The translations under genes were made by a program, and so were the position numbers. The notes below the pieces were generated by a model, which had not been told where the DNA came from, made no database searches, and saw only the letters and a program-made list of their open reading frames with translations. Shown here piece after piece: positions 24,293 to 62,026 of a stretch of DNA of 64,000 bases. Within the stretch, counting starts at the first letter, position 1; every line of letters starts with the position of its first letter. Where the stretch lies: positions 253-64,252 of the forward strand of contig JAHHGZ010000029.1 in NCBI GenBank assembly GCA_019359595.1, read 5' to 3'. The stretch comes from Cyanomargarita calcarea GSE-NOS-MK-12-04C (GTDB taxonomy: Bacteria; Cyanobacteriota; Cyanobacteriia; Cyanobacteriales; Nostocaceae).

Positions 24293-24312
24293 TCAGCCCC
24301 AAGAGAAAAAAT

Positions 24313-41514: not shown

Positions 41515-44500
41515 ATGGAAATATGGATAAATTTGGAGTTTGGTGACGGGAACTTTGAATGCGGATTTGCTAAAATCAATCTTAACGTAACGGTAGCAAA
41601 TGGACAGGAGAATATCACACAACAAGAAGTCCAACTACCTCCAAATACAGAAATTTCAGATTCCTATCAACGTTGGAAAGAGCAATACTATTCCTTACTA
41701 AACCATTCCAGAGGTGGTTTTAAAAATAACCAAGTTACTCATATATCCAAAATAGATTGTCATAGTTCTGCTCAGGGTTTATGCCGTCATCTTCATCAGT
41801 GGCTTCACCCTATTCAGTCACAATTAGAACAAGCACTCTCACAAGACTCTCAACCAGAAATTCGTTTATTTATCCACACAGAGAAAATTACCTGCCTCAC
41901 CACCAAAGACATCTTACATCGACTACCTTGGCAAGAATGGGGTTTTTTCGCTCAAAAGTTTTTCTGCGAAGCGGCTGTTTGTTTTCACTCTTTTGTTGCA
42001 AGTACTGCGACATCGAAAAAATTATCGACTTCTGGTAAAATTAGAAGAGCTAGGATTATCAGTATTTTTGGAGACAGTACAGATATTGATATCAGTGGAG
42101 ATAAAAAATTACTTGAAAAATTGAAGAAACGGTCGGCAGAACTCATCATTCTGACAGAACCAACTCGTTCTGATTTTAATATGCTCTGGGAAGAAGCCTG
42201 CGATATCCTATTTTTTGCCGGTCATAGCGAAACAAAAGGTGAGGGTCAAACAGGCATAATAAATATTAATCCCAATGATAGTTTAAGTTTAGCAGAAATC
42301 AAAAGAACATTGAAGGCAGCAATTAATAAAGGTTTAAAATTAGCAATTTTCAATTCCTGCGATGGTCTAGGTTTAGCAAAGCAATTAGCAGATTTAAACT
42401 TACCTTATATTATTGTTTGGCGGGAAGTTGTACCAGATAAATTAGCACAAAAGTTTCTCCAATATTTTTTAAGTTCTTTTTCCAAGGGTGAATCTTTATT
42501 TAATTCAGTCCGACAAGCAAGAGATAAGCTGAAAGAACTTGCAAACGACAAAGATATTGAGAAGCGGCTACCGGGGGTAAGTTGGTTGCCAATTATCTGT
42601 AAAAATACAACTGAGCTTGCACCGAGTTGGGAAGATTTAGGAGGGCTTTCTGGTGAACTTCCTCTTAGTCCCTACCAGGGTTTATCTGCGTTTCAAAAGG
42701 AAAATGCAGATTACTTTTTTGGTAGGGAGAAGTTTATTGCTAAGTTAGTAGAAGCAGCCAACAGCAACCCGTTAGTGCCTGTCATTGGTGCATCTGGGAG
42801 TGGAAAGTCGTCTGTAGTGTTTGCCGGGTTGATTCCCCGTTTACAAGCTACTGAGAATGCAGAGATAATCAATTTTCGACCGGGGAAAAATCCGTTTGAT
42901 GCAATGGCAGTGGCATTGAGCAAATATTGCCAGTCTGCGGTACTAGAATTTGAGGTCAACTTGCGACATGATGAGACAGTATTATGCCGTTTGATTGAAA
43001 ATATTGTTAATTCTTTAGGATATCAGCGTTTGGTGTTAGTAGCAGATCAGTTTGAAGAACTTTACACTCTTGCTGCTCAGGAAGAACGTCACAGTTTTTT
43101 AAGATCGCTGCTTTTGGCTGTAACATATGCTCGGTCGTTTACGCTGGTGCTAACATTGCGAGCAGATTTTTTGGGAATTGTGCTTGACGAGCAATCAATG
43201 GGAAAGGCTTTGCAACAATACCCCCCATTGTTACTGACTGCGATGGATAGGGAGGAATTGCGAGATGCGATCGAAAAACCAGCGTTAAAGATGAAGGTGG
43301 AACTGGAGGAGGGGTTAACAAGTAAACTAATTAATGATGTAGGCGATCGCCCTGGTCGTTTACCTCTTTTGGAGTTTGCCTTAACTCAACTGTGGTCGAA
43401 ACAGAAAAATTGGTATTTGACGCATCAAGCTTATGAAGAAATTGGCGGTTTAGAAAAAGCTTTAGCAAAACATGCTTCGGAAGTCTTAAAGCTGCTATCT
43501 GCCGTGAAAGAACAACAAGCAGAAAGGGTGTTTATTCAGTTAGTGCGTCCAGGGGAAGGGACGGAGGATACCAGACGTGTTGCGACTCGCAACGAGGTGA
43601 GGGAAGAAAATTGGGGTTTAGTCAAACATTTGGCTGATGAGCGTTTGGTGGTGACTGGGTGGGATGAAGTTAATGAAATAGAAACAGTAGAAATTGTCCA
43701 TGAAGCGTTGATTCGAGAATGGGGAACTCTGCGAGAGTGGATAACAGCTAACCGTGAGTTTCGCATTTGGCAAGAAAGGTTCAAGGAAGATGTGCGTGAC
43801 TGGGAAAATAGTAATCAAAACCCAGAAGCATTATTGCAAGGAACGCGCCTAGCTGTAGCAGAAGATTGGTATAATCACAGAGGAGATGAATTAACACCAC
43901 GAGCGCGAGATTTTATTACTGCTAGCATTACATGGCGGAAACAAGAGCAGCAAAAACAGAGGCACAGACGACAGCTAACTACTTTTGGGCTTACTGGTGT
44001 TTCGCTGGTAGCTTTGATGCTAGCTGGGGCCGCTTGGTGGCAATCGCAGAATGCCCAATTGAACGAAATCAAAGCTATTAGTGTATCAAGTAAAGCGCTT
44101 TTAACCTTGGAGCAAGATTTTGAAGCGCTGATAGAAAGTTTAAGGGCATCTAGAAAACTGAAAGAAACACCATCTGTTCTGATATTTCATAGATTTCAGG
44201 AAAAGGCTGATATCCAAAAGCAGATTGATATTTTATTACAAAATGCACTCTATAAAGTTACGGAACGCAATCGACTAGAAAAGCATAAAGATGAGGTTAC
44301 AGACGTTAGTTTCAGCCCCGACGGTAAGATAATTGCCACTGCAAGTAAAGACAAAACTGTCAAACTCTGGAGTTTGGATGGGGCTCAGATACAAACACTC
44401 AAAGGTCATAAAGATTGGGTGCGTAGTGTCCGTTTTAGCTCCACAGGGAAAACAATTGCCACAGCTAGTTGGGATGGAACTGTCAAACTTTGGACAACAG

Positions 44501-46137
44501 AAGGTAAATTAATGACTACTCTAACAGGGCATAATACAAAGGTTTATAGTGTGAGCTTTAGCCCTGACGGAAAGACAATTGCTAGCGCTGATGCCAAAGG
44601 ATATGTAAAAGTCTGGACTTTGGAAGGTAAATTCATCAAAACTTTCAAGGCACATGACCAGCCTGTCTTGAGCCTGAGTTTCAGTCCTGATGGTAATACT
44701 CTTGCCACTGCCAGTCAGGATAAAACTGTCAAACTCTGGAGCCGGAATGAGAAACTACTGCGAACCTTGACTGGACATAAAGATTGGGTTTGGAGCGTTA
44801 GTTTCAGCCCTGATAGTCAAAAAATTGCTACCGCTAGTAGGGATGAAACTGGGAAGCTCTGGAGCATTGAGGGAAAAGAGATAAAAACCCTAAAGGATGA
44901 TAAAAATTCGGTCACTAGCGTTAGTTTTAGTCCTGATGGAAAGCAAATTGTTACTGTCGGTGCTGACCAAACTATTAAAATCTGGGACGAATCTGGCCAG
45001 AAGCTCCAAACCCTGATGAGCGGACATAAAGATTGGATCTGGAGCGTCAGTTTCAGTCCTGACGGAAAGATGATGGCCACTGCTAGCAAGGATGGAACTG
45101 CAAAACTCTGGCAATTGAAAGGGAAAAAACATTACATTCAGCAGGCGCATAATGTTGCGATTTATTGCGTAAGTTTTAGCCCTGATGAAAAGGAATATGC
45201 CACCGCTAGTAAGGACAAAACTGTCAAACTTTGGAAGCGCTCAGGTGAATTAATTAAAACCCTTAAATTAGATAACAGTAGCAATGATACATGGTTTACT
45301 CACATCAGTTTTAGCCCTAATGGACAAAGAATTGCTACCGCTACTCAAGATGGCACTGTCATACTTTGGAATCGTCAAGGAGAGAAAATAAAAACTTTCC
45401 AAGGGCACAATAAAAAATGGATATGGCAAGTGAGTTTTAGCCCTGATGGCAACACTCTTGCCACTGCCGGTCATGACGGCATTGTCAAATTCTGGAACTT
45501 AGATGGTAAGCTAATCCAAAGTATTAAGGCACATACAAAAGGTAAAAATGAAGATGGGGAAGGGGCTAATAGCGTCAGTTTTAGTCCTGATGGCAAAATT
45601 ATCGCCACCGCTGGTTGGGACAAAACAGTCAAACTTTGGACAAGAGAAGGTAAACTAATCAAAACCCTTAGACAGCATCAAGATGGGGTTCATAGTGTCA
45701 GTTTCAGTCCCAACGGCAAGATGATTGCTAGTGCCAGTGAGGATAGAACTGTTAAACTTTGGACGCTTGAAGGTAAATTAATCACAACTCTCAAAGGCCA
45801 TGAAGCTGGAGTCTTCCGTGTCAAATTTAGTCCAGATAGCAAAACAATTGCTACTGGCAGTTTAGATAAGACTGTAAAACTCTGGAGTCTTGACGGTAAA
45901 GAACTGAAAACCTACAAAGGACATGGTGATTCTGTCATGAGCCTTAATTTCAGCCGTGATGGGAATCACCTGATCTCAGCCGATAAAGCCGGAAAAATTA
46001 TTATCTGGGATTTGGGATTAGACTCAAATCAACTACTGATTGATGGTTGCAATTGGGTAGGTGACTATCTGAAGAATAATCCCCAGGTGAGTGAGAGCGA
46101 TCGCACTTTGTGTCAGGGAATTGGAATTCAAAAGTGA
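41515..46137 (+). CDS. CHAT (caspase-like) protease - STAND/NACHT-type P-loop NTPase - TM - 14 x WD40 repeat protein
   Basis: 1540 aa. The CHAT His/Cys dyad context is FFAGHSETKGEGQ and AIFNSCDGLGLA. Walker A is VIGASGSGKSSVVFAG and Walker B is LVLVADQFEEL. A hydrophobic helix LTGVSLVALMLAGAAWW sits near residue 830. From about 900 onward there are 14 WD repeats (SFSPDGK..WD). Confidence 0.85.
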   Translation: MEIWINLEFGDGNFECGFAKINLNVTVANGQENITQQEVQLPPNTEISDSYQRWKEQYYSLLNHSRGGFKNNQVTHISKIDCHSSAQGLCRHLHQWLHPIQSQLEQALSQDSQPEIRLFIHTEKITCLTTKDILHRLPWQEWGFFAQKFFCEAAVCFHSFVASTATSKKLSTSGKIRRARIISIFGDSTDIDISGDKKLLEKLKKRSAELIILTEPTRSDFNMLWEEACDILFFAGHSETKGEGQTGIININPNDSLSLAEIKRTLKAAINKGLKLAIFNSCDGLGLAKQLADLNLPYIIVWREVVPDKLAQKFLQYFLSSFSKGESLFNSVRQARDKLKELANDKDIEKRLPGVSWLPIICKNTTELAPSWEDLGGLSGELPLSPYQGLSAFQKENADYFFGREKFIAKLVEAANSNPLVPVIGASGSGKSSVVFAGLIPRLQATENAEIINFRPGKNPFDAMAVALSKYCQSAVLEFEVNLRHDETVLCRLIENIVNSLGYQRLVLVADQFEELYTLAAQEERHSFLRSLLLAVTYARSFTLVLTLRADFLGIVLDEQSMGKALQQYPPLLLTAMDREELRDAIEKPALKMKVELEEGLTSKLINDVGDRPGRLPLLEFALTQLWSKQKNWYLTHQAYEEIGGLEKALAKHASEVLKLLSAVKEQQAERVFIQLVRPGEGTEDTRRVATRNEVREENWGLVKHLADERLVVTGWDEVNEIETVEIVHEALIREWGTLREWITANREFRIWQERFKEDVRDWENSNQNPEALLQGTRLAVAEDWYNHRGDELTPRARDFITASITWRKQEQQKQRHRRQLTTFGLTGVSLVALMLAGAAWWQSQNAQLNEIKAISVSSKALLTLEQDFEALIESLRASRKLKETPSVLIFHRFQEKADIQKQIDILLQNALYKVTERNRLEKHKDEVTDVSFSPDGKIIATASKDKTVKLWSLDGAQIQTLKGHKDWVRSVRFSSTGKTIATASWDGTVKLWTTEGKLMTTLTGHNTKVYSVSFSPDGKTIASADAKGYVKVWTLEGKFIKTFKAHDQPVLSLSFSPDGNTLATASQDKTVKLWSRNEKLLRTLTGHKDWVWSVSFSPDSQKIATASRDETGKLWSIEGKEIKTLKDDKNSVTSVSFSPDGKQIVTVGADQTIKIWDESGQKLQTLMSGHKDWIWSVSFSPDGKMMATASKDGTAKLWQLKGKKHYIQQAHNVAIYCVSFSPDEKEYATASKDKTVKLWKRSGELIKTLKLDNSSNDTWFTHISFSPNGQRIATATQDGTVILWNRQGEKIKTFQGHNKKWIWQVSFSPDGNTLATAGHDGIVKFWNLDGKLIQSIKAHTKGKNEDGEGANSVSFSPDGKIIATAGWDKTVKLWTREGKLIKTLRQHQDGVHSVSFSPNGKMIASASEDRTVKLWTLEGKLITTLKGHEAGVFRVKFSPDSKTIATGSLDKTVKLWSLDGKELKTYKGHGDSVMSLNFSRDGNHLISADKAGKIIIWDLGLDSNQLLIDGCNWVGDYLKNNPQVSESDRTLCQGIGIQK

Positions 46138-50420: not shown

Positions 50421-50933
50421 ATAGTTACATCTTTAACCAATAGGTATAGAGAGATTGAATACTTGCGTAAAAATGGAATACCACCAGACGGAGTAGTTGG
50501 AACCAAAATGTACACATATTCCTAAGCAAAATTTTGCTTAGGAATATGTGTTCCTAAACAGGAGAAAGCAAGAAATTATATTGAGATTGTTCAGAAGGTA
50601 ATTGCTTGTTTTTCCTGCTTCTACTTTTATATAGGTTCAAGTCTAATTGACTTATACACTTCTATGATGCCAAGATAAAATTTGTGTTGCAAAAACTTGT
50701 CGAGGATAAAATATCTGGATGAGAAAGATATACTTATGCAGTAAATGCGACAAAAGGGAATAAAAAACCAAAATAATCAACCTTTCAATCAGCTTGATTT
50801 TCTGATTGTTTATTCTTTTGTGTCTGTTCTGTTTGAGGAGTCACTGCTGAGTTGCTCTACCATCGCTGTTTATTGTTATTCAAGCTGTAAGTACTGGCAA
50901 AAGTCTACTCTAGACTAAACACCATAAAAAAAA

Positions 50934-52040
50934 TTACAACAAAAATTCCTCAACAATCACAGCACCCTGAAAGCCGACTTCAACCTGAAATTGCTTCCCT
51001 ACAATCTCACTAAATTCTAACTGAATGAGATTATCAGCTTTCCTCGTAATAACTTCCTGACTTTCTGACTCAGAAGTATTAGGATTAAGAGTCACTTTCA
51101 ACTTCAACGCAGACGGTAGATATTCCTCATTATAAGGAATAACCTGTACAAGCACATCAACTTCATTATCTTCCAACCGTTTTACATTGATAACTAAAGC
51201 TAATTTTTGACCATTTAGTAATAGTCCAAAATCTAACTTTTTGACCCCACAATGATAATCAATTGACTTACTTCTTACAACACCCCAAGCATAGTTACTA
51301 TCAAGCGTCTTCAGCATATCCTTAGTGGATTGCCAACCTTCTTCAAAAACTCCAAGGCACCAACTGCTCACGTTGACTAACGCTTTATTAACGATGCTTG
51401 TACTCTGGCTTAGAGTTTGTATATCTGTACGATCAACCCCAACTACCGATGGTAAAGGAATAGCATCTGGTGACAAAAAAGACGAGTACAGCAATAGGTT
51501 ATTCACCTCAGAATCAAACCAAGAAAGTGGTAGCTGATAACAACTATCAGATTTAGCTTCCAAGTTAATTGATTGGCAATATTCAATTAATTTATCGTAA
51601 CGTAAAAAACCGTGGATGTTTAATTTTTCTTCCTCTTCTAATACCTCAAGCAATACATAAAAATGAGCAATCATTTTTGGAGAGTTGATGACTTCTTTTG
51701 GTACAGTCACAAAATCATCAATTAGGTTGTCAACACTAATTAAGCAAAGGCTGAATCCACCGACACTTAGATTCCAAACAACATTCATCGCATTAGCGCT
51801 ATCAGATTCAAATATCGAGCAGTTATCTCGATTAATTTTCACATCTGGAATTCTTTCTCTTAGCCATTCTTCAAAACCAAGTAGCGCTAGTGCATTTAAA
51901 TAAATTGTCCACTGGTTTGTTTCGCTTAAGTTTCGGTCGCTAATTTTTTTAGCTTCTTCAAAATGCTCCGATTCCAGCCAAATAACTTTTGCTGACAATT
52001 CTTGTCTCCAGTATCTTGAATAAACAGAGGTATTAGTCAT
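50934..52040 (-). CDS. DUF1822-like cyanobacterial protein (tentative)
   Basis: 368 aa. The N-terminal WLESEHFEEA..SETNQWTIYLNALALLGFEEWL pattern recalls the DUF1822 family from memory. It is AT-rich. Confidence 0.4.
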   Translation of the reverse strand: MTNTSVYSRYWRQELSAKVIWLESEHFEEAKKISDRNLSETNQWTIYLNALALLGFEEWLRERIPDVKINRDNCSIFESDSANAMNVVWNLSVGGFSLCLISVDNLIDDFVTVPKEVINSPKMIAHFYVLLEVLEEEEKLNIHGFLRYDKLIEYCQSINLEAKSDSCYQLPLSWFDSEVNNLLLYSSFLSPDAIPLPSVVGVDRTDIQTLSQSTSIVNKALVNVSSWCLGVFEEGWQSTKDMLKTLDSNYAWGVVRSKSIDYHCGVKKLDFGLLLNGQKLALVINVKRLEDNEVDVLVQVIPYNEEYLPSALKLKVTLNPNTSESESQEVITRKADNLIQLEFSEIVGKQFQVEVGFQGAVIVEEFLL

Positions 52041-52085: not shown

Positions 52086-53648
52086 TCATGCTGCCTTTTT
52101 GATTAAATCATTAAGATAGCGACGTGTCATTTTGGCAAATAAGCTATTTTTTTGCTGTTTTTTCCCGCTTAGGATTTCTGCGTGTGCATCGTTGAATGCT
52201 TTCTTCAAAGCATAACTTCTAATTTCATCAGCAACATTTTTTAGATAGTCTGGGTTACTAGAAATTGTAGTTACTCGATATTGTGTCGGCGATTTACAAA
52301 TTTTGTCAATAAATTTTTCTTCTGTGCGATACTGAACCCGATCGAGAAAATTTTCTAATTGAAATATTCGTCTAACTTTACACCAAGGTATCCCCCATAA
52401 TTTACCAATCTCCCCTAAAGACATATTCTTTTGATATAAAAGTTGCAAACCTTCATGAAATTGTTGGGCAAAACTTTTGTAACCTTTACTTTTTTTCAAT
52501 CCTTCAATTTTTTGGTAAGTAACTTCTGATATTGCTTGATATAAAACCTCTTCAAATAAGTCATGACAATCCTCTTTTAATTGGTTTAATTCAATCTCCT
52601 CTAAATCGGTGTCAACATAATAATCTAATTCTCGATTGGGAATATAATCATTAGTGGAGTTGTCATACACTTCTATAGGTATAGTTTTGGGACTACCTGT
52701 TCTCCTCGAAAGCGTATCCTGACGTAAGACTTCTGCAATTCTTTTGAGATGATAAATTAGTTTTATATGAGAACTCATGATATTTCGTTGTTGCAACAAA
52801 TCATGCATTTCCTGTAATTGGTTTAGCGTAGGTTCAGAACAACGTCCTTTTTCATCTGATTTGCGTCTGTCTCGACGATAGACTGCATGAAATACCTCTA
52901 AAATTTCCCTGTCTCCTTTTTCAAGATGCGATTCCAAGGAACGGGGAATATGTCCACATAGTAAGGCCCAGTCACTGGGAGTCCGTACCCCCAATTCCCA
53001 TAGAAATAACCTTAAATTTTGATTCTGTTGAGTTAGTCTCCAAGTCCAATTATCCAAGCTTTCATTGGAACTTAAGGTTGGATTAAATTTTCTTAAAATT
53101 TCAACGCTAAAAAACTCTCCTCCTTTAGGTATTGGTCGAGTTGTATCATCTTGATTCAAGATAAGTTGAGTTTGACCTTCACTATCCAACAGTATCTGTT
53201 CTTTACCATCATCATTTAAAACGAATGGAAGCAAATCAATATAGCTAAAAGGGTTCTCAATTTCTTTTTTACAGGTGTGAGGAATTTTTTTGCAGCTAAT
53301 GAGAATCGTCTGAGATACATAGCATCTCAAACAAAGTCCAGCAGAAGCACGATCACGCATATCGGAAGCTGAACAAAAAATCTTCCACACAACAGCTTGA
53401 ATATGCCTGTTTTCTTCTGACGATAGTGTGGGTTGGCTGGCTAGCTGGGGGAATTGTATACTGAAGAACTCCTGTGCTAGGCGGATTGTCCTGGATTTGT
53501 AGCCATCTTTTAGCTTATTGTCTACCACCCTAGGAGAATCAATTATCCACATTATCCAGTATCTTGACGATGCTACCATAGGTTTTAAAATTACCTCGCT
53601 TCTCATCAGACATGACATCAACAGCGAACCTATTTCACCAGAAACCAT
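52086..53648 (-). CDS. hypothetical protein with sigma-70 region-4-like HTH near C-terminus
   Basis: 520 aa. MSLGEIGKLWGIPWCKVRRIFQLE resembles the region-4 HTH (TLEEIG..GVTRERIRQIE). The rest is unassigned, the start is ambiguous (several Met in the first 25 aa) and it is AT-rich. Confidence 0.35.
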   Translation of the reverse strand: MVSGEIGSLLMSCLMRSEVILKPMVASSRYWIMWIIDSPRVVDNKLKDGYKSRTIRLAQEFFSIQFPQLASQPTLSSEENRHIQAVVWKIFCSASDMRDRASAGLCLRCYVSQTILISCKKIPHTCKKEIENPFSYIDLLPFVLNDDGKEQILLDSEGQTQLILNQDDTTRPIPKGGEFFSVEILRKFNPTLSSNESLDNWTWRLTQQNQNLRLFLWELGVRTPSDWALLCGHIPRSLESHLEKGDREILEVFHAVYRRDRRKSDEKGRCSEPTLNQLQEMHDLLQQRNIMSSHIKLIYHLKRIAEVLRQDTLSRRTGSPKTIPIEVYDNSTNDYIPNRELDYYVDTDLEEIELNQLKEDCHDLFEEVLYQAISEVTYQKIEGLKKSKGYKSFAQQFHEGLQLLYQKNMSLGEIGKLWGIPWCKVRRIFQLENFLDRVQYRTEEKFIDKICKSPTQYRVTTISSNPDYLKNVADEIRSYALKKAFNDAHAEILSGKKQQKNSLFAKMTRRYLNDLIKKAA

Positions 53649-54295
53649 TTTTTCTCAATGTTCTGGAGAGCTACATATATATAGTGTTTGGTTTTGTGAA
53701 CTTATACACTTTGAGTCGAATGGCACTCTTGTTGAGCCCTGAAATTGGTGCAAGATATCAGCCTAGTAGCGGGCGCGGCGATCGCGGAGCGTAAAATATG
53801 AAAATAACACATTTTTTTTGTAACCCTTGCTATATATGGATTGTGGAATGTGTTAGTTAGGAGTTAAAACGGACTCAGTACAAGGATTTGAGACAATCAC
53901 GGGTGTCACCCCTGAGTTAATTGACCCACAGCATCATTTATTTCTGGGCTTGTTGGAATTAATGCAAGATGTAATTTTAAATGAGCTGAAACCTCTGTCT
54001 TAGCTAGCTTTAGTAGACCTCAATGTCCAGCCTCACGTAAAAAATTTAGCTAACACAACCCACATAAAGTGCATAAGTCTATTCGACTTGAAACTATTTA
54101 TAAGTAGAAGCAGGAAAAACAAGCAATTATCTTAAGCTTCTCGTTCTGCTCAAAAGAATAGCTCAAATTCTAGCTTTTCTGTCAGACTGGCTGATTTTAG
54201 AATCCGGGAAACCAGTAGTGGAGACGTATTGCCAATTTTTGGAGATGTTGAATTTTTTTCCTTTTGATTACCTAATATTCTACCACATTAATTTT

Positions 54296-54397
54296 GAGAG
54301 GTAAAGACAACAGAACTAAATCCCCCGTGACCCCTATGTTGGGGGTACTATGTTCAACTTTGAATTTTATCCTCCCCCAGAATTGGGGCAGGGGGGC
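54296..54397. repeat. dispersed short repeat, family A copy
   Basis: GTAAAGACAACAGAACTAAATCC ... ATGTTCAACTTTGAATTTTATCCTCCCCCAGAATTGGGGCAGGGGGGC shares both ends with 18175-18304. Confidence 0.7.
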
Positions 54398-54504
54398 TTC
54401 CGAGTCGGGAAAGAGCGCATAACTAATATGGTCGTCCACTAGTTTTCAGACTAATTGCTAGCTTAATCGCTTCTAGAATTTCTCAACTTAAAAGGTTTTC
54501 AACG

Positions 54505-54912
54505 ATGAATCGTAACTTTATCTATCGCATTGTAGAACTGACTAATGCTCAACGTCGTCAGGTCGGTTTGCCAGACCTAAGATTTAACCCTGTGTTAGCA
54601 GCAGCGGCACAGAAACATAGTGCAGACATGGCATTGGAGGATTTTTTCAATCATAAAAGCCCAAATGGAAGCAAGCCTTCGGATCGTGCCCAAGCTGAAG
54701 GATATCCATCAACATATGTCGGTGAAAACATCTATGCAGGTGGTTCCACCCCAGAAAATGCTTTTGAAGGATGGATGAAGAGTGAAGGACATCGTAATAA
54801 CATCCTGAGTCCAAATTATCAAGACATTGGAGTTGGTTACTATTTTCTAGGGAACGATACGGGTAATGTTAATTACAACCATTACTGGACACAATGCTTT
54901 GGCAAACCCTAA
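54505..54912 (+). CDS. CAP/SCP/PR-1-like domain protein
   Basis: 135 aa with HSADMALEDFFNH, GENIYAG and GHRNNIL..IGVGYY, the conserved CAP motifs. No signal peptide is evident. Confidence 0.8.
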   Translation: MNRNFIYRIVELTNAQRRQVGLPDLRFNPVLAAAAQKHSADMALEDFFNHKSPNGSKPSDRAQAEGYPSTYVGENIYAGGSTPENAFEGWMKSEGHRNNILSPNYQDIGVGYYFLGNDTGNVNYNHYWTQCFGKP

Positions 54913-54973
54913 TCAAAGAATTTAGTTGAATTTAACCAAATCACCCCTTTTCTACATTTTAGAGGTTATTACC

Positions 54974-55384
54974 ATGAGCCAAGAATTTATCAATCGTGTT
55001 GTAGAACTCACTAACGTCGAACGTCAGAGAGCAGGTTTACCACCACTGAAATTCAATGGTCGGTTAGCTGTAGCCGCTCAAAAGCACAGTGTAGACATGG
55101 CAATGCGCGACTTTTTCAATCACAAAGGAGAAGATGGTTCATCCCCATTTGACCGTATTAAAGCTACAGGCTATCGATACTCCCGTGCAGCAGAAAACAT
55201 TTCAGCAGGCAACTCTACCCCAGAAGATTCCGTCAAGGGATGGATGAACAGCCAAGGACATCGCAAAAACATTCTGACTCCAGATTATAAGGAAATTGGG
55301 GTTGGTTATTATTTTCTAGGTAATGATACGGGCGACGTTAATTACAAACACTACTGGACACAAGTTTTTGGTACACCTTTGTAA
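54974..55384 (+). CDS. CAP/SCP/PR-1-like domain protein (tandem paralogue)
   Basis: The track ORF opens at 54926, but AGAGGT is followed by ATG at 54974 (MSQEFINRVVELTNVERQRAGL). It is about 55% identical to the upstream CAP protein. Confidence 0.8.
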   Translation: MSQEFINRVVELTNVERQRAGLPPLKFNGRLAVAAQKHSVDMAMRDFFNHKGEDGSSPFDRIKATGYRYSRAAENISAGNSTPEDSVKGWMNSQGHRKNILTPDYKEIGVGYYFLGNDTGDVNYKHYWTQVFGTPL

Positions 55385-55432
55385 TTTGCATTGTCACGGC
55401 AATTCTAGAATTTCATTTTTTGGAGTTCATTT

Positions 55433-55978
55433 ATGTCTTGTACAGTCGGTAATTCATACATTGTCAAGTCGGGAGATACGCTTTTTATCATTGCCCAACA
55501 ACAATTAGGTGATGGTAACCGTTGGCGTGAAATCAAAAAACCAGATGGCACTTCATTTACAGACCAAGACGCTTCTAATTTGCTTGTTGGTCAGGAAATT
55601 TGCATTCCTGGGTCTATTTCTCCACCTCCTCCCTCCGGGAACCAAATCAAGCTAGAAGCCAGATTTTATAGCATGGAAGAAACAAGGTGTCACACACCAG
55701 CCTCTGGTGTACATGGAGTGACCTTGCGGGCAGCGCTTGCAGGTCAATGGCAGTCACAATGTCAAGGTCAAAGCGTTGGACGTTTGCAGTGTGCAGTAGA
55801 CCCAAATGTTATTCCTCTGTTAACAAATTTTACCTTGATGCTTTGGGATGGTAGGCAAGTTCCCGCAGCAGCCTTAGATATAGGTACGGCAATTCTAGGT
55901 AAGAAGATTGATATCTTCGTTGATACCGTTCAAGAAGCGATCAATTTAGGTGTACAGCCTGTTACAGCAATTTTGTAA
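55433..55978 (+). CDS. LysM + 3D (MltA/YabE-like) domain protein
   Basis: 181 aa. The N-terminal LysM is [26 protein letters not shown]. The C-terminus (VDPNVIPLLTNFTLMLWDGRQVPAAALDIGTAILGKKIDIFVDT) resembles 3D domains. Confidence 0.6.
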   Translation: MSCTVGNSYIVKSGDTLFIIAQQQLGDGNRWREIKKPDGTSFTDQDASNLLVGQEICIPGSISPPPPSGNQIKLEARFYSMEETRCHTPASGVHGVTLRAALAGQWQSQCQGQSVGRLQCAVDPNVIPLLTNFTLMLWDGRQVPAAALDIGTAILGKKIDIFVDTVQEAINLGVQPVTAIL

Positions 55979-56140
55979 AAAGTAAATCCCCATAAATTTA
56001 GGGGCTTTTAACCCTTTTTATTTCTTCTTTCTTTTACCTTCTTACAAAGTTAGGCGGGACGGAAACCGACACCGCCTACTTTGCGCTTCTTACTTTTTAC
56101 TTTTGCCTTGTTCAGTAATTTCATTTTTTGGAGTTGATTT

Positions 56141-57064
56141 ATGTCTTGTACAGTTGGTAATTCATACATTGTCAAGTCGGGAGACACGCTTTTTATCATT
56201 GCCCAACAACAATTAGGTGATGGTAACCGTTGGCGTGAAATCAAAAAAACAGATGGTACTCCCTACACAGATGCAGATGCCGCGAATTTACAGGTAGGTC
56301 AGGAAATCTGCATTCCGAACGGGTCCACTCCCCCTCCCCCAACGGGCAATGGTTTCGCGAGTATTGTGTCACGCCAAAGCTACGAAGCCATGTTCCCAAA
56401 CCGTAACGGTCTGTACACCTACGACGGTCTAGTGGCCGCAACACAAAAATACCCAAGCTTCTGCAATGAAGGATCTGACGTGCAACGCAAGCGTGAAGCA
56501 GCTGCTTTTTTAGCAAACATTGCCCACGAAACCACTGGTGGTTGGGATGCTGCTCCTGGTGGACGTTATGCTTGGGGTCTGCACTTTATTGAAGAGCAGA
56601 AACCCCAAGGCATATACTGCGATTCGTCGAATAGTACCTATCCCTGCAAACCCGGCAAATCCTATCACGGTCGCGGCCCTATCCAACTTTCGTGGAACTA
56701 CAACTATGGTCAAGTGGGTCAAGCTTTGGGCCTCGATCTGCTCTCCAACCCTGACCTGGTGAAGTCCGATAGTGCGATCGCCTTCCAAACTGCCTTGTGG
56801 TTCTGGATGACCCCCCAGCAACCCAAGCCTTCTTGTCATGCGGTGATGACTGGTAAATGGACACCTTCTGGCGATGATGCGAGCAAGGGACGTGCGCCTG
56901 GTTTTGGCATGACCATTAATATTATCAACGGTGGTCTTGAATGTGGCATGGGCACCCCTCCTGCCGTGACGGATAGGGTTGGCTTTTACAATCATTTCAC
57001 CCAATTGTTGGGTGTGAACGCGGGCGATAACCTCTACTGCGATCGCATGGGTCCCTACCGCTAA
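56141..57064 (+). CDS. LysM + glycoside hydrolase family 19 chitinase
   Basis: 307 aa with GH19 signatures [12 protein letters not shown] and [14 protein letters not shown]. The N-terminal LysM is nearly identical at nucleotide level to the previous gene. Confidence 0.9.
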
Positions 57065-57643
57065 GGTCTTACAGCAATTCTGTATGAAGATGCACATAAT
57101 CAAGACCCCCCTGTAGTCCCCCCTTGCCAAGGGGGGACGGCGTAGCCGGGGGGTAATATATGCAGCTTCACAAAGAAACGGTCTTACAGCAATTTTCACT
57201 CCCTTTGTACCACAATCCCAAACCTAATCCCCCTCCGGATGTTCAAGAAGGGGGAATATCAAAGCCTCTCTTCTTCTTGAGAGGTATCCCTAGCACTGGA
57301 AAGACCACTGCGTGAACGGGGAAGCAAGCTATGGAGAGAGGTCAAAAATGTGGTTTATTTACCCGAAAATAGCTGTAAAAAAGTTTTTTTGCTGGTGTGC
57401 TAAATATCTGCCTAAGGAACACCTGGTAAAGAGAATTATCCATTGCCCGAAATCCTCTGTAGCTACAATACCCTGCGGGAAGCTCCGCTATATGAATTGT
57501 AGCTACCTTGCCCAAGTTCCTCCAGAAAATCCTTGGTCTGGATCAAACGGTGCTGAGGGAAACTACGGTCTGTGGTATCTCAACGACCAAGGAAAGTATA
57601 CAGACAAGACAAGCCCCTGAGACTATAGCAGCCGATTGGAATT

Positions 57644-58561
57644 ATGAATGACAAAATTGAGACAGACTATTCCGTAATCATGACTAAAAGTAGAAAATTT
57701 TCATCAGCCCTGTCCAGAGCTTCTATCACGCTTTTGATGGTATCACTTTCACTCTTGATCCTGTTTGTCAATCCCCAAGGTGCGATGGCGCAGGAGTCAA
57801 GAGCCACAAGCCATACGACTCGCTTGTCAGTTACTAACCAGTGTGACTTTCCCGTGTGGATGGCAACAATACCTAACGCCAATATAACTCCTTTGTCGGA
57901 TGGTACTGTTAAACTATCCAAGGGTCAATCACATGATTACTCCATACCCAATAGCGGCTGGGCTGGAAGATTCTGGCCCAAAAGCGGGTGTGATTCCAAT
58001 GGCATGAACTGCACCGCAGGAGAAGCAGTACCACCATGTCCTGCAACAGGTTGTCAACCCCCAGCCGACACCAAAGTTGAAATTAACTTTCCCAACCTCT
58101 CTTCAAGGGATAATGCTTGGTATAATATCAGCCTCGTAGACGGGTATAGCCTTCCTGTGGAGATTAAACCTAGAGAAGGAGAGTCAGGTTCATGTATAAC
58201 AACGAATTGTAATCTTTCTCTTAATAGCTGTCCTCAAGATGAAACACAGGGTTTAGGGGATCTTCGAGTCTTCAATGCTGGGAAAGCCGTACAATGCCTG
58301 TCTCCGTGTAAGAAATGGAACTATCCCGCTCCTTTCGGTCTAGGAAAGCCTGAAACCGAAGCACCTGGTATCGATTTATGTTGTCCGTACAACGATGTCG
58401 AGCGGTGTCGCAGGGGACCTGTCGTACAAACAAAGTTTGTCCAGACTGTACATAAAACATGTCCTACTGCTTATGGCTATGCTTACGACGATGAAGCCGG
58501 GTTGCACAATTGTCCAACGCAGAAGAGCTTTGATGTGACGCTTTGTTCAGTAGGACGTTAA
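57644..58561 (+). CDS. thaumatin-like protein (PR-5 family)
   Basis: 305 aa. A signal peptide is present if the start is M13 (57680: MTKSRKFSSALSRASITLLMVSLSLLILFVNPQGAMA). The mature region has the thaumatin Cys framework and motifs (NQCDFPVW, GRFWPKSGC, DGYSLPVEI, CPTAYGYAYDDE). Confidence 0.85.
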   Translation: MNDKIETDYSVIMTKSRKFSSALSRASITLLMVSLSLLILFVNPQGAMAQESRATSHTTRLSVTNQCDFPVWMATIPNANITPLSDGTVKLSKGQSHDYSIPNSGWAGRFWPKSGCDSNGMNCTAGEAVPPCPATGCQPPADTKVEINFPNLSSRDNAWYNISLVDGYSLPVEIKPREGESGSCITTNCNLSLNSCPQDETQGLGDLRVFNAGKAVQCLSPCKKWNYPAPFGLGKPETEAPGIDLCCPYNDVERCRRGPVVQTKFVQTVHKTCPTAYGYAYDDEAGLHNCPTQKSFDVTLCSVGR

Positions 58562-58746
58562 TGGTCTCAGATCAAGATGCTTTATAAACAAGCCTTCTGC
58601 TTGAAAAGTTAATCAGCAGTATTAGCCTTTCAACGAGTGCAGGAGAGTAACAAAAAAATACCTAATTGTTTGTTGTTAGATGAGCATGAGGTTCCAAGTC
58701 GTGGCAACAAGCAATTACCTTTTTCAGTTGTCTTTGGAGGTCAATT

Positions 58747-59889
58747 ATGACGTGTCAATCTGGTCGTTCATACACCATAAAAGTGGGAGATACGCTTTAT
58801 ATCATTGCTCAAAATGAGTTAGGTGATGGTAACCGTTGGCGTGAAATTCTAAAATCAAGCGGTACTTCATTTACAGAAGAAGAGGCTAGTAATTTGCAAC
58901 TGGGTCAGGAGGTCTGCATCCCTCAAACTAATACCACACCTCCCACACCTCCTACACCGTCTCCCAATGAAGGCAAACTATTTGTTGGCTACTTCCAGAG
59001 TTGGTCTGAGAAATGGGGTAGCGAACCCAATCAACTACAACTGGCTAATTTACCGTCTTATGTCAACATGGTGATTGTGTCTTTTATGAAGCCAGACGCT
59101 ACCTACGGAGGTAACCTAAGTTTGGCGGGTACAGGGCTTGATTTTAGTGCAGATGGTTCAGTGGTAAAAGGTGCGATCGCATTGCTCAAGCAAAGAAATC
59201 CCAATACAAAAGTGCTGGTAGCTGTCGGTGGAGCTACTTACCATAATTTTGCTGGTCTGAATGTCGGTGCGATCGCTTCTGTTGTGAAAGACTTTGGATT
59301 TGACGGTGTAGATATTGACTACGAGCCGTTTAATACTGCTCAGTGCTCATCTACAAACGGTAAGATATCCTGCACGTCTGATACTGAGTATCGTCGGATT
59401 GTAAACGAAATTCGCCAAGCACTTCCAAGGCCCTATCTGGTTACGCTTGCCGCTTGGAGCATCGGTGCCTATGGTGAGGGGGAGTGGACAAATTCTAAGC
59501 CTCAAGGTGCGCTGACCGGTTTACTCTTAAATTTGCTTCAGTCGTCTGATGCTAACAAGATTGACCTACTCAATGTCATGTCCTATGATGCCAGTCCCGA
59601 ATACAAACCACAAGAAGCTTTAGTAGCATATCAAAACTATTTCAAGGGAAAAATTGTCATGGGCGTTGAAGTCCCACCAGAAGGATGGGGGGGGCATATT
59701 TACACCATACCCGAAGTTCGTAATCTGGTAAATGCAGTTCGTGAAAAAAATGCAGCAGGGATGATGCTGTGGAGCATTCAAAAACAGCCAAATGGAACGC
59801 CTAGTGATAACAATCCAAGCGCTCAGATGATTGCCAAAGAAATCTGTCAACAATTATCTCTAGGCAATTGCGATCTGCCACTTTCTTAA
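58747..59889 (+). CDS. LysM + glycoside hydrolase family 18 (class III chitinase/hevamine-like)
   Basis: 380 aa with an N-terminal LysM, then a (b/a)8-type sequence with the catalytic FDGVDIDYE (DxxDxDxE). Confidence 0.85.
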   Translation: MTCQSGRSYTIKVGDTLYIIAQNELGDGNRWREILKSSGTSFTEEEASNLQLGQEVCIPQTNTTPPTPPTPSPNEGKLFVGYFQSWSEKWGSEPNQLQLANLPSYVNMVIVSFMKPDATYGGNLSLAGTGLDFSADGSVVKGAIALLKQRNPNTKVLVAVGGATYHNFAGLNVGAIASVVKDFGFDGVDIDYEPFNTAQCSSTNGKISCTSDTEYRRIVNEIRQALPRPYLVTLAAWSIGAYGEGEWTNSKPQGALTGLLLNLLQSSDANKIDLLNVMSYDASPEYKPQEALVAYQNYFKGKIVMGVEVPPEGWGGHIYTIPEVRNLVNAVREKNAAGMMLWSIQKQPNGTPSDNNPSAQMIAKEICQQLSLGNCDLPLS

Positions 59890-59991
59890 GCCAATAATTC
59901 GTACAGAATAACCAAGCATCTCATCTTCCAAAACTTAAAGCGGTCATCTTTTACTTAGCAATAAAACTCAACTTCAAAGAAGGAGAAAATC

Positions 59992-60981
59992 ATGACTAAC
60001 AATGAAGACACAACAAACTTTGATGGATTATTGAAGAGTGGCGATATTTGCACAGGTTTCATATCTGGAGCTACTTTTAAGAATAAGGCAATTCAGTACT
60101 CAGTCGTCGATGGGCTAGCCATTTTTGAAGGCTGCATCTGTCTTGGCACCGTTGAAGAAATGGAGAAGAAAACAGCTGCTATCCGAGCCGGACAAGATAT
60201 TGAAGAGAACCCTCCTACACGCGGTCTATTCATCCCAGGACAGCAGTATCGCTGGACAAATGGTATTGTGCCCTATGAAATCGATCCTAATCTCCCCAAT
60301 CAGAAGCGCGTTACGGATGCGATCGCTCACTGGGAACAAAAGACTCACATCAGGTTCGTGAATCGAACAAGCAACAATGCCAATCAATATCCGAACTACA
60401 TTCGCTTCCGACCTGCCGATGGCTGCTGGTCTCTTATCGGTATGCGAGGGGGCAAGCAAGATATTGGTCTAGCCAATGGTTGCGGCTTGGGTTCTACAAT
60501 CCACGAAATTGGTCATGCATTGGGGCTTTGGCACGAGCAAAGTCGAGAAGATAGAGATAGACACATTCAAATTCATTGGCAGAACATTGAGTCTGACCAT
60601 CAGCATAACTTTAACCAACACATCAATGACGGTGATGACCACGGTTCTTACGATTATGACTCGATCATGCATTACGGATCGACAGCTTTTTCTAAAAACG
60701 GTCAACCAACAATTACAACCGTTTCATCTGGAAGACCCATCGGGCAAAGAAATGGTCTTAGCAATGGTGATATAGCTACTATCCGATTTCTCTATCCAGG
60801 GACAACTCCTCAGTTACGTCCGTACACCATAAAACAGGGAGATACATTGTTTTTAATTGCTGAACGAGAGTTAGGTGATGGTAACCGTTGGCGTGAAATC
60901 ATGAAAACATCTAATGGCGGCTCTTTTACAGAACAGGAGGCTAATAATTTGCAAGTGGGTCAGGTAGTCTACCTTCCTTAA
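59992..60981 (+). CDS. astacin-family (M12A) zinc metalloprotease with C-terminal LysM
   Basis: 329 aa with HEIGHALGLWHEQSREDRD (HExxHxxGxxHE), a Met-turn SIMHY, and a C-terminal Lys[27 protein letters not shown]. Confidence 0.85.
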   Translation: MTNNEDTTNFDGLLKSGDICTGFISGATFKNKAIQYSVVDGLAIFEGCICLGTVEEMEKKTAAIRAGQDIEENPPTRGLFIPGQQYRWTNGIVPYEIDPNLPNQKRVTDAIAHWEQKTHIRFVNRTSNNANQYPNYIRFRPADGCWSLIGMRGGKQDIGLANGCGLGSTIHEIGHALGLWHEQSREDRDRHIQIHWQNIESDHQHNFNQHINDGDDHGSYDYDSIMHYGSTAFSKNGQPTITTVSSGRPIGQRNGLSNGDIATIRFLYPGTTPQLRPYTIKQGDTLFLIAERELGDGNRWREIMKTSNGGSFTEQEANNLQVGQVVYLP

Positions 60982-61305
60982 CTTGAGGATGTATCCTAAC
61001 AGGACTTACGATATTGTCACAAATCATCGAAGGGAAGAGACGCTACAAACCTTTATTTATTTGTGCCGACCTACTTAGTACAGTTTTGCATTAATTCGTA
61101 GCGTTTTTAAACGCAGAGGTACGCAGAGTTTTTTTAAGAGGATTCGCTACGAATTTATGAAATTGTGTACTTAGTCCGGAATCGAAAACTCTCATCGGAA
61201 GAATAAAGTTTCCTAAATAAATTAGCTGGCAAAACTTATCCTGCTAAATTTAGGACTACTGAGACTCTAATGGAAGACAGCTACTCTGTTTTTTAATGAA
61301 CGTAA

Positions 61306-61671
61306 ATGTCAAATAATGTGTCCCGACTTGTAATAGGTGAAATCGTTTTCTCTGAAAAGCTGGATTCATTCTCTGGAGCCAACGTGAATGTATATCTTGA
61401 AGATGTGAGTTCTCTGGATGCTCCCTCTAGGATTGTCGTCAAACAAGTGATTGCTGATATTTCCCATGAAATAGGGACTGAGAATCGGGTTAAATTTGCT
61501 TTAAAAGGTGAGAATTTAAATGAATGGGCAAGTTATTCAATCCGTGTACATATCTCTCTTCATGGAGATGAACAAATCCACCGTGGAGACTATATCACTA
61601 TGGAGAGCTATCCAGTTCTTACATTTGGATATCCAAATCAGGTATTAGTATATGTACAAAAGGTGAAGTAG
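61306..61671 (+). CDS. hypothetical protein
   Basis: 121-aa ORF downstream of the astacin gene with no recognisable motif. Confidence 0.3.
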   Translation: MSNNVSRLVIGEIVFSEKLDSFSGANVNVYLEDVSSLDAPSRIVVKQVIADISHEIGTENRVKFALKGENLNEWASYSIRVHISLHGDEQIHRGDYITMESYPVLTFGYPNQVLVYVQKVK

Positions 61672-61761
61672 CATTTTTAGGGAAGATAACAGCCAAAAAA
61701 TCATCAAGAGAAGTAAATAGCTAGAGAGGGCCTTTTGTAGTGAAACTTTATCTCTTGAAGA

Positions 61762-62010
61762 AGGAAGAAGGAAGAGGTTTTTGAGTTGGAGATTCAGACC
61801 CCAACTCAATACGGGCAACTTGTAGAGGTCGGGGTATTAAACCCCCTGCTCCCGGATAAAAAATGCCTATTTTAGTCACAGAAATCGACGCTTAAATTAG
61901 AGATTAAATTCAGATTAATACTGAATTATTTATCCTCGCCGGGGGGTTAATACCCCAACTCAAAACTTCCTTCTTCCTTCTTCCTTCTTCCTTCTTCCTT
62001 CTTCCTTCAT
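61762..62010. mobile_element. MITE-like inverted-repeat element ending in (TTCCTTC)n microsatellite
   Basis: The left arm is GAAGAAGGAAGAAGGAAGAGGTTTTTGAGTTGG...GGGGTATTAAACCCC. The right arm is GGGGGGTTAATACCCCAACTCAAAACTTCCTTCTTCCTTC... The two are imperfect reverse complements, and the right end carries 6 x TTCCTTC. Confidence 0.5.
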
Positions 62011-62026
62011 TCATTGGTACTTAATT

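Follow-up and report, generated by a model that had tools for sequence, protein, structure and literature searches.

Seven genes on the + strand, between positions 54505 and 60981 of a 64,000-nucleotide stretch of DNA (the window) from Cyanomargarita calcarea GSE-NOS-MK-12-04C, a member of the Nostocales represented by a metagenome-assembled genome from a desert wet wall in Utah, encode two CAP proteins, a LysM-3D protein, a LysM-GH19 chitinase, a thaumatin-like protein, a LysM-GH18 chitinase-like protein and an astacin ending in a LysM module. On balance, this locus is probably one form of a modular cassette carried by filamentous cyanobacteria, most of them subaerial or benthic; the cassette would encode a cocktail of proteins directed against the fungal cell wall. 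The observations behind this interpretation concern the domains and motifs of the proteins, the recurrence and variability of the gene set, the dichotomy between proteins with and without a signal peptide, the shuffling of the LysM module, and the synteny with a DUF1822 gene and with orf520, a gene whose product displays a sigma-factor-like fold.

Judging from the families to which the proteins belong, GH19 and GH18 would cleave chitin, whereas glucans would be handled by the thaumatin-like protein, by a GH17 enzyme that has been lost from this locus, and by the GH64, GH30 and α-1,3-glucanase enzymes of sister loci. The astacin, like the S8 protease found elsewhere, would attack the wall proteins, with the CAP and LysM-3D proteins as putative constant accessories. 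A single, actively shuffled LysM module would bind N-acetylglucosamine (GlcNAc) polymers and thus tether diverse catalytic domains to chitin, and the thaumatin-like protein would be a disulfide-rich, Sec-exported component. Cyanobacteria share lichens, biocrusts and rock biofilms with fungi, and chytrids attack them as parasites. In this respect, the cassette would provide a concrete genetic basis for the way filamentous cyanobacteria confront fungi.

Composition of the gene cluster

The seven genes correspond to MBW4670297-303 in GenBank, where they carry generic annotation only. All seven open reading frames (ORFs) exceed the Pfam threshold for their named catalytic or main family and possess intact catalytic motifs. 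The domain assignments of the original prediction, made by inspection of the letters, were therefore confirmed by profile search, and the motifs it had quoted were found again, namely the DGVDIDYE motif of GH18 (cited as FDGVDIDYE), the SIMHY motif of the astacin and the full Cys framework of the thaumatin-like protein, which comprises 16 Cys in its mature form.

The cluster begins with CAP1 (54505..54912, 135 amino acids, MBW4670297, Pfam CAP 3.9e-25) and CAP2 (54974..55384, Pfam CAP 5.7e-28), two tandem duplicates sharing 75% nucleotide identity. The longest ORF of CAP2 begins at 54926 but the actual start is probably M17 (54974), yielding a protein of 136 amino acids; the orthologues in two related loci, L002 and L036, begin at the position of the MSQEF motif. 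LysM-3D (55433..55978, 181 amino acids) consists of an N-terminal LysM (2e-6) followed by a 3D domain of the MltA/YuiC type (PF06725, 9.9e-9), and the LysM-GH19 chitinase (56141..57064, 307 amino acids), a loopful enzyme with loop II that belongs to the CHIT 11-I class, matches PF00182 over model positions 2-232 of 232 (2.2e-91). The thaumatin-like gene (57680..58561) matches the whole PF00314 model (1-209 of 209, 3.6e-35); its ORF is open from 57644 and its start is probably M13 (57680). The last two genes code for the LysM-GH18 chitinase-like protein (58747..59889, 380 amino acids, PF00704 5e-16) and the astacin (M12A) metalloprotease with its C-terminal LysM (59992..60981, 329 amino acids, PF01400 1.4e-53).

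Recurrence and variability of the cassette

The genes are not grouped by chance. Variable forms of the cluster were found in no fewer than 10 further cyanobacterial loci (designated below by L numbers). CAP, LysM-3D and LysM-GH19 form its core and co-occur in Nostocales, Pleurocapsa and Nodosilinea. Among the non-redundant cyanobacterial loci retrieved with GH19 as a seed, seven out of nine have the 3D gene either directly upstream of GH19 or joined to it in a fusion, six have a CAP gene within 6 kb of GH19, and all nine possess either 3D or CAP. In two loci (L046:1437-3167 and L048:3735-5459), LysM, 3D, a fascin/DUF7910-like β-trefoil and GH19 are strung together in a single ORF, which indicates a functional link between 3D and GH19. 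The clustering is specific, since no partner genes were found at 31 non-cyanobacterial thaumatin loci (myxobacteria and a metagenome-assembled genome of the Geminicoccaceae) nor at a Ktedonobacterial GH19 locus.

Around this core, the cargo differs from one locus to another. Pfam detected GH17 in three loci (L002, L003 and L046) and a LysM-GH17 protein in a fourth (L040), while homologues in L056 (325 amino acids) and L004 (truncated, 151 amino acids) were recognised by sequence similarity only. In L003 and L046 the GH17 gene has the thaumatin gene as its neighbour, as does the fragment in L004, and in L002 it occupies another place in the cluster. A GH64 β-1,3-glucanase (7.7e-78) is present in L003, with a homologous ORF in L056 and a fragment in L057 that were identified by similarity and outside the Pfam scan. 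L003 also contains a GH30 enzyme (4.6e-37), a family that includes β-1,6-glucanases. L056 codes for a LysM-CatAgl α-1,3-glucanase (1.7e-44), whose N-terminus is matched by that of a 626-amino-acid ORF in L057, and for a CE4 deacetylase (2.5e-40). An S8 protease and β-γ-crystallins occur in L037. Taken together, the predicted cargo spans the polysaccharides of the fungal wall, i.e., chitin and the β-1,3-, β-1,6- and α-1,3-glucans.

The window itself keeps a trace of this variability. The gap between the GH19 and thaumatin genes contains the final 33 codons of a GH17 β-1,3-glucanase (57510..57608, + strand), detected by tblastn with the GH17-like proteins of L002, L003, L046 and L056 (79-91% identity, E 1e-12 to 1e-18, with the 91% value for Tolypothrix); no other part of the gene was found by tblastn anywhere in the window. 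A relic of which the remainder has been deleted testifies to gene turnover inside the cassette.

The idea of a co-localised arsenal attacking cell walls, advanced in the original prediction, is thus supported, and the case is made stronger by the GH17, GH64, GH30, α-1,3-glucanase and CE4 enzymes that the sister loci add. A routine peptidoglycan-turnover operon was judged unlikely from the glucan-specific cargo. A broader version of the same idea would have the cassette remodel the envelope of the producer, with LysM, 3D, GH19 and CE4 acting on its own peptidoglycan and the glucanases on the sheath or on the β-1,3-linked polysaccharide of heterocysts and akinetes, e.g., during germination, hormogonium release or necridium formation. 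LysM, 3D and CE4 are indeed classic peptidoglycan-associated domains, NCBI names the proteins "LysM peptidoglycan-binding", L045 contains a Tlde1-like L,D-transpeptidase fold, and the heterocyst envelope polysaccharide has a β-1,3 backbone. Such a function nevertheless appears quite improbable. GH19 is of the CHIT type rather than the endolysin type and possesses the loop II associated with fungal wall binding, the α-1,3-glucanase, GH64, GH30 and thaumatin-like proteins have no known cyanobacterial substrate, and the core also occurs in the non-heterocystous Pleurocapsa and Nodosilinea. Moreover, enzymes devoid of signal peptides would be unable to get to the periplasm or the envelope, and the patchy occurrence and variability of the cassette contrast with housekeeping wall enzymes.

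The carriers comprise taxa from wet walls, cave walls and stone surfaces together with a lichen photobiont, Rhizonema from Dictyonema, which harbours one of the richest versions of the cassette. This lichen occurrence favours a role in symbiosis, in which trimming of the fungus (a lichen mycobiont or a biofilm partner), or signalling to it, would proceed via chito- and gluco-oligosaccharides or by setting limits to haustoria. The enzyme set would be identical to that of an antifungal cocktail, so that the two interpretations differ in their ecological outcome only, and the authors of the GH19 Engineering Database speculated that LysM-GH19 proteins modulate fungal symbioses (PMC8547705). Partner management is nonetheless improbable as the general explanation: most carriers are free-living taxa of wet walls, caves and soil, and the proteases and CAP proteins suit antagonism better.

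Some further members of the cassettes escape classification. The LysM-X proteins of L002 (8979-9767), L046 (5759-6550) and L058 (5024-6076, - strand) have in common a domain of about 190 residues with an ESG...GKYQFGE motif; the domain gave no Pfam match at E<=5 and no PDB match, which leaves a lysozyme or transglycosylase assignment as an unconfirmed guess. Another LysM-X protein, in Rhizonema (L003:7543-8619), displays a GH16-like GEIDIIE motif, the GH16 guess being likewise unconfirmed by Pfam (no match at E<=5) or the PDB (no match). These LysM-X domains may be new wall-active domains. One cassette is headed by a protein of 156 amino acids (L045:3065-3535) that matches Tlde1 weakly (E 2.5e-4) and contains an H...SSGC motif like that of L,D-transpeptidases; it possibly targets peptidoglycan.

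The LysM module

The LysM module occurs in four copies in the cluster (55409-55608, 56117-56316, 58723-58922 and 60817-60981, all + strand; DNA repeat search), three at N-termini and the fourth at the C-terminal end of the astacin. The copies carried by 3D and GH19 are 90% identical over 200 nucleotides, and the next copy is 73% identical. Since the repeat starts 24 nucleotides upstream of the ATG, the ribosome-binding site and the start codon have been duplicated along with the module, and the LysM N-termini are therefore genuine. The module of GH18 scores 17.9 bits, below the Pfam cut-off of 20.9, but is homologous to the others because it belongs to the same DNA repeat.

Within the module, a core of 26 nucleotides encoding GDGNRWREI forms an exact repeat on the + strand (55508-55533, 56216-56241, 58822-58847 and 60874-60899), identical in four copies out of four against none expected, in a surrounding module that is 73-90% identical. 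The synonymous sites of this core are concordant within one genome and divergent across genomes. Such an agreement within genomes, combined with the difference between genomes, is indicative of ongoing copying or gene conversion, and points to a LysM tag that would be homogenised within each genome by concerted evolution or recombination-based shuffling. In other loci the module is found on CAP, GH17 and the α-1,3-glucanase, and on either side of 3D. A conserved pair of cysteines, Cys3 and Cys57, flanks the N-terminal LysM, and GH19 and GH18 also keep conserved Cys pairs.

The GH19 chitinase and its 3D partner

Alignment of GH19 with the sequences of crystal structures locates the catalytic motifs HETTGG (E130), IEE (E152) and QLSWNYNYG (S184). 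The closest structures are the reconstructed protein Anc4+LoopII (8x2w, 5.4e-98) and the papaya chitinase (3cql, 1.3e-89), well ahead of the short, loopless Streptomyces type (about 1e-50 to 1e-54). The alignment to 8x2w requires a single gap of one residue, the domain is about six residues shorter than 3cql, and comparison with both structures shows that loop II is present and loop I absent. In the loopful GH19 class, loop II together with scaffold substitutions confers fungal wall binding and antifungal activity (PMC11018821). Of the six GH19 substitutions associated with antifungal activity by Kozome et al., only those at positions 12, 13 and 58 could be mapped (P, N and T, respectively), the others being ambiguous, and no claim is drawn from them. 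According to these features, the enzyme is predicted to be of the chitinase (CHIT) type rather than of the endolysin type.

LysM-GH19 proteins of 300-310 amino acids are widespread in cyanobacteria and also occur in Ktedonobacteria. They have already been catalogued as the class CHIT 11-I in the GH19 Engineering Database (Orlando et al. 2021, PMC8547705), where an ancient, weakly supported transfer from plants to bacteria has been inferred for this class. The gene in the window has an unusual composition (GC 0.51, and 0.50 at third codon positions, GC3, against a GC3 of 0.30-0.40 in its neighbours and a GC of 0.41 in the window), an anomaly which is unexplained given the wide cyanobacterial spread of the family. 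GH19 is a plant-like, loopful member of an old family spread across cyanobacteria and not a recent local acquisition. The original suggestion that the cluster might have been acquired in part from eukaryotes would hold for GH19 in the sense of an inferred ancient plant-to-bacteria transfer, but neither as a recent local event nor, as will be seen below, for a plant source of the thaumatin gene.

The 3D domain contains the three conserved Asp residues, and D139, D149, D160 and D164 are invariant across 11 orthologues; a fold model computed from the single sequence was unusable (predicted local distance difference test score, pLDDT, of 39). Given its fusion to GH19 in some genomes, the 3D domain would probably assist this enzyme by cleaving glycan strands or loosening the wall.

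Export signals

Signal peptides were scored with a hydrophobicity proxy, with the thaumatin, GH18 and orf520 families as controls. Signal-peptide-like N-termini were found in 75% of the thaumatin-family relatives and 47% of the GH18-family relatives, and in only 2% of the orf520 family, which served as the cytoplasmic control. In the window, the thaumatin-like protein alone displays such an N-terminus (proxy score 2.92, Sec-type, with an AMA/QE cleavage site), and CAP1, e.g., has none. This peculiarity, already pointed out by the original prediction, was borne out and extends to the whole family of cassettes: three out of three cassette thaumatin-like proteins are positive, against none of the 26 other cassette proteins of nine loci. 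Similarly, 116 of the 119 LysM-GH19 relatives are negative and 3 (3%) positive, and at least 84 of these 119 proteins with a full N-terminus, taken from the best 120 LysM-GH19 matches, have the LysM at residue 1. That about a dozen enzyme families that are normally secreted are systematically made without signal peptides is a puzzle of protein export. The literature concedes that little is understood of non-classical secretion in cyanobacteria (PMC11424642).

The simplest solution, possible but somewhat doubtful, is that the enzymes other than the thaumatin-like protein would be stored inside the cell and set free once one of the cells in the filament lyses or is broken open, e.g., by an invading hypha, by a haustorium or by the rhizoid of a chytrid; alternatively, they would leave the cell by an uncharacterised non-classical route. 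Export by a holin and a peptidoglycan hydrolase, comparable to the Type 10 secretion of the Serratia chitinases and with LysM-3D as the wall-opening hydrolase, would account for chitinases that lack signal peptides and adjoin a conserved, putatively peptidoglycan-cleaving 3D protein. It is distinctly improbable, since no holin-like small membrane ORF was found among the ORFs of at least 25 amino acids in 53650-63400 or conserved among the small ORFs of eight related loci, and since the fusion of 3D to GH19 (L046 and L048) suggests a common substrate instead of an export device.

The same dichotomy bears on a nutritional role, in which the chitin and glucan of dead fungi or arthropods would be scavenged as carbon and nitrogen sources. 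Many bacteria use such glycoside hydrolase families for nutrition, and the literature on exoenzymes discusses the use of chitin by some cyanobacteria. Scavenging is most unlikely here: transporters, GlcNAc catabolic genes and secretion signals are missing beside the cluster, CAP, thaumatin-like proteins and proteases are not nutritional, and nutritional secreted enzymes normally possess signal peptides, as do 47-75% of the members of the control families.

Affinities of the thaumatin-like and other proteins

The relationships of the thaumatin-like protein lie outside of the plant kingdom. Its nearest named relatives, at about 50% identity, come from springtails, sciarid and cecidomyiid flies, Rokubacteria and myxobacteria, and the match to the cherry PR-5 protein reaches only 7e-21, against about 1e-93 for a springtail protein. 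A neighbour-joining (NJ) tree unites the cyanobacterial sequences in one clade (bootstrap 100), inside a bacterial/arthropod subfamily which is split from the plant thaumatin-like proteins of cherry and apple (bootstrap 100). The arthropod sequences (springtails, fungus gnats and gall midges) form another clade (bootstrap 90) beside a myxobacterial one, and the deeper branching has bootstrap values below 30. The tree rejects a recent plant origin of the gene, and the original description of the protein as a relative of plant PR-5 has to be abandoned in favour of a clade of bacteria and soil arthropods. This distribution suggests an inter-kingdom transfer of the subfamily between bacteria and fungus-associated soil arthropods, in either direction. 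The members P0144, P0179, P0188, P0196, P0204 and P0211 belong to this arthropod/bacterial comparison.

A weapon against grazers has to be considered in this context. Intracellular chitinases, proteases, CAP and thaumatin-like proteins freed on ingestion could harm the chitinous gut linings or eggshells of arthropods, nematodes and rotifers; the absence of signal peptides would suit a release at ingestion or lysis, the thaumatin subfamily also occurs in soil arthropods, and chitinases combined with metallo- or serine proteases are typical anti-invertebrate factors. Since the β-1,3-, β-1,6- and α-1,3-glucanases and GH64 would have no target in animals, and loop II of GH19 is tied to the binding of fungal walls, this function is very unlikely.

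The CAP and GH18 proteins display bacterial affinities. CAP1 matches TIGR02909 (YkwD) at 3.8e-31, under the cut-off of that family, YkwD being the best NCBIfam match of the CAPs, and CAP2 has as its nearest structure the Bacillus SCP protein 4ifa (6.8e-16), the only PDB matches of the CAPs being bacterial SCP proteins (4ifa and 4h0a). The CAP/PR-1 label proposed earlier stands as far as the CAP domain (PF00188) is concerned, whereas the profile and PDB matches are those of YkwD and bacterial SCP proteins, and on the strength of these matches both proteins can provisionally be assigned to the bacterial YkwD type. The GH18 protein possesses the DGVDIDYE and MSYD motifs, the former being nearly invariant in the alignment of its family, which counts 196 representatives at E<1e-30. 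The profile built from this family matches bacterial chitinases best (5gzu at 4.9e-22 and 6k7z at 9e-14), plant entries follow at about 1e-8, and hevamine is absent from the top 60 PDB matches, so that the PR-8 (class III) identity assumed for GH18 finds no support.

The astacin contains a HExxHxxGxxHE zinc site (HEIGHALGLWHE) at residue 171 and a SIMHY Met-turn at residue 224, and resembles 8a28 (1.1e-36) as well as BMP1 and meprin (about 1e-33). It is followed by a gene for a small YbaY/YscW-like protein (61306..61671, + strand, Pfam YscW 6.8e-6, with neither a lipobox nor a signal peptide), an orthologue of which, 81% identical, also follows the astacin in Tolypothrix (L002); the pair occurs as well on a JGI contig. 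This protein may be a partner, an inhibitor or a chaperone of the protease.

The putative regulatory neighbourhood

Upstream of CAP1 and divergent from it lies orf520 (52086..53579, - strand), coding for about 497 amino acids from M24 in an ORF that extends to 53648. Its predicted structure resembles the sigma2 and sigma4 domains, while sequence profiles gave no Pfam match even at E<=5 and only a weak helix-turn-helix match (DeoR, E 0.11). The model thus resembles a divergent sigma-70-family-like protein. A DUF1822 gene (50934..52040, - strand, Pfam DUF1822 4.5e-48) comes next, as it always does after orf520 in the loci compared, and the pair keeps its synteny with the cassette in four other loci, L002, L036, L045 (37-38% identity) and Nostoc sp. 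UHCC 0870 (L058). DUF1822 alone occurs near the cassette in L056.

The intergenic region between orf520 and CAP1 contains two conserved non-coding blocks. The block at 54049..54205 shows 88% identity with Tolypothrix (L002), and its core, at about 54064-54125, is kept in Nostoc L058, which makes it a candidate shared regulatory region. The second block lies at about 53661-53708; block conservation with Nostoc amounts to 23 nucleotides at 96%. No Rfam family corresponds to them, and both may be regarded as candidate promoter or operator elements.

Beyond DUF1822, a gene for a CHAT-nSTAND1-WD40 protein (41515..46137, + strand, 1540 amino acids; nSTAND1 1.3e-114, WD40, N-terminal CHAT 3.9e-8) is separated from the pair by a three-gene block of low GC content (46185-50900, GC 0.30-0.35), which encodes a 247-amino-acid protein without known family, a Ser/Thr kinase-GUN4 protein and a 631-amino-acid P-loop NTPase with weak PADLOC matches to PDC-M28C and mad8. 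The block is absent in L036, from a 98%-identical strain, and since the CHAT-nSTAND1-WD40 gene directly abuts DUF1822 there, it corresponds to a low-GC insertion, probably recent and perhaps a defence island. The same CHAT-nSTAND1-WD40 architecture is found beside sigma-like, CAP and LysM genes in Nostoc L058, and in Nodosilinea L041 GH19 is bordered by CHAT and nSTAND1 genes. The CHAT-nSTAND1-WD40 protein could tentatively be considered as a sensor for the cluster.

Based on this synteny, it is conceivable, though far from assured, that the expression of the cassette would be driven by orf520 with DUF1822, possibly downstream of the CHAT-STAND-WD40 sensor. Taken one step further, the cassette would become the transcriptional output of an innate-immunity module, in which the NLR-like CHAT-STAND-WD40 sensor would detect a eukaryotic invader or cell damage and act through orf520 and DUF1822, the stored PR-like hydrolases being freed at the death of the attacked cell. 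This scheme is rather improbable; if true, it would represent a bacterial analogue of the plant defence leading from NLRs to pathogenesis-related (PR) proteins, directed against fungi instead of phages. PADLOC returned nothing for the cluster, orf520 or DUF1822, and an anti-phage system was rejected.

Arguments weighing against the antifungal interpretation

Several points speak against a fungal wall-attacking cassette under the control of orf520. The substrates in vivo, the antifungal role, the mechanism of release and the regulation are what we infer from family membership and synteny. As regards the enzymes, the GH17 matches extend over no more than the C-terminal third of the Pfam model, GH30 is assigned at the level of the family, and several members of the cassettes are possibly directed to peptidoglycan, although these are limited to LysM, 3D, CE4 and the Tlde1-like protein of L045. 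The conserved Cys pairs of LysM, GH19 and GH18 suggest an oxidising, extracytoplasmic workplace, and yet no export route is visible.

As regards regulation, the orf520/DUF1822 pair is missing in roughly half of the loci that possess the cassette, and no 9- or 10-mer is common to three or more intergenic regions that could represent a shared promoter motif. In L059, a sigma-like/DUF1822 pair with 41% identity is located among STAND and CHAT genes without any hydrolases, which implies that the pair belongs primarily to the STAND/CHAT system and that the cassette is one of its neighbours. Finally, the link to the sensor is only suggestive, because STAND genes are abundant in such genomes and their adjacency may be due to chance.

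Other features of the window

A PLSDB megablast of the locus gave no match and a plasmid origin was rejected, and no credible RNA element was detected by Rfam in 53500-61400. Elsewhere in the window are located an S8 protease (38293-40020) with about 400 N-terminal residues without assigned domain, a group of P450 and glycosyltransferase genes (21635-27064), and a Wzz/ParA-type regulator together with many consecutive + strand ORFs (137-18152), which may be polysaccharide biosynthesis genes.

Comparison with known systems

The cassette recalls the PR proteins of plants (PR-1 CAP, PR-2 GH17, PR-3 GH19, PR-5 thaumatin, PR-8 GH18) by its families, by the fungal chitin and glucan presumed to be the target, and by a loopful GH19 with loop II. 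It differs from them in being bacterial and clustered, in the use of LysM instead of hevein/CBM18, in the restriction of the signal peptide to the thaumatin-like protein, in the additional 3D, astacin, GH64, GH30 and α-1,3-glucanase proteins, and in a thaumatin that falls outside the plant clade. The resemblance is a functional convergence of enzyme families, and not the result of a common ancestry of the gene set.

Lysobacter, myxobacteria and Bacillus circulans (which combines the Agl-KA α-1,3-glucanase with a chitinase) lyse fungal walls by means of chitinases, β-1,3/1,6-glucanases and proteases. The combination of enzymes is similar, but those of the mycolytic bacteria possess signal peptides and are mostly scattered, whereas here they are clustered, LysM-tagged and devoid of signal peptides; the myxobacterial thaumatin genes, in turn, have no cassette neighbours. 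In Serratia marcescens, ChiWXYZ mediates the holin- and endopeptidase-dependent (Type 10) secretion of chitinases. As in that system, chitinolytic enzymes without signal peptides are located beside a wall hydrolase, but no holin or spanin genes were found here in 53650-63400 or in the related loci.

The astacin passes the NCBIfam cut-off for LegP, the astacin-like Dot/Icm effector of Legionella (NF045530, 324 bits for an equivalog cut-off of 300), its N-terminal region included, and PGAP calls the Hassallia orthologue LegP; unlike LegP, it carries a C-terminal LysM and resides in a cyanobacterial host. No Dot/Icm system is known in cyanobacteria, and general scans of the window ORFs (those at 3628-25581 being outside the scans, except 21635-22909) yielded no type IV secretion families, no search having been targeted at them. 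The name LegP is an annotation transfer and not evidence of type IV secretion.

What is already known is the single LysM-GH19 class, in silico. CHIT 11-I enzymes have in common with the present GH19 the loops 2-5, a cyanobacterial, Ktedonobacterial and myxobacterial spread, and the fusion to LysM (PMC8547705). As far as the consulted part of that paper goes, it covers the GH19 domain alone, with LysM on three sequences only, compared to the proportion of at least 84 in 119 among the best 120 matches reported above, and the gene neighbourhood, the missing signal peptides and the partner enzymes did not come up (PMC8547705). The cassette, its missing signal peptides and its regulatory neighbourhood are without description in the literature searched, in keeping with the original remark that no described bacterial locus co-localising these families was known. 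Cyanobacterial antifungal enzymes have been described as poorly explored (PMC10300848). The LysM-tagged loopful GH19, GH64, α-1,3-glucanase and thaumatin-like proteins are candidate enzymes for biocontrol, and experiments are feasible since carrier strains exist as cultures in collections.

The pairing of an extracytoplasmic function (ECF) sigma factor with DUF1822 has been reported in STAND/caspase conflict systems directed against invaders (Kaur, Iyer, Burroughs, Aravind 2021, PMC8195603). The window, L036, L058 and L059 resemble these systems in having DUF1822 and a sigma-like gene near CHAT (caspase-like) and nSTAND1-WD40 genes. The part of that study consulted names no transcriptional target for the sigma factor (PMC8195603), whereas here a hydrolase cassette is divergently adjacent to the sigma-like gene, a link suggested by synteny. 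For the sigma-like/DUF1822/STAND systems of multicellular bacteria, the cassette is a candidate for a target of transcriptional control.

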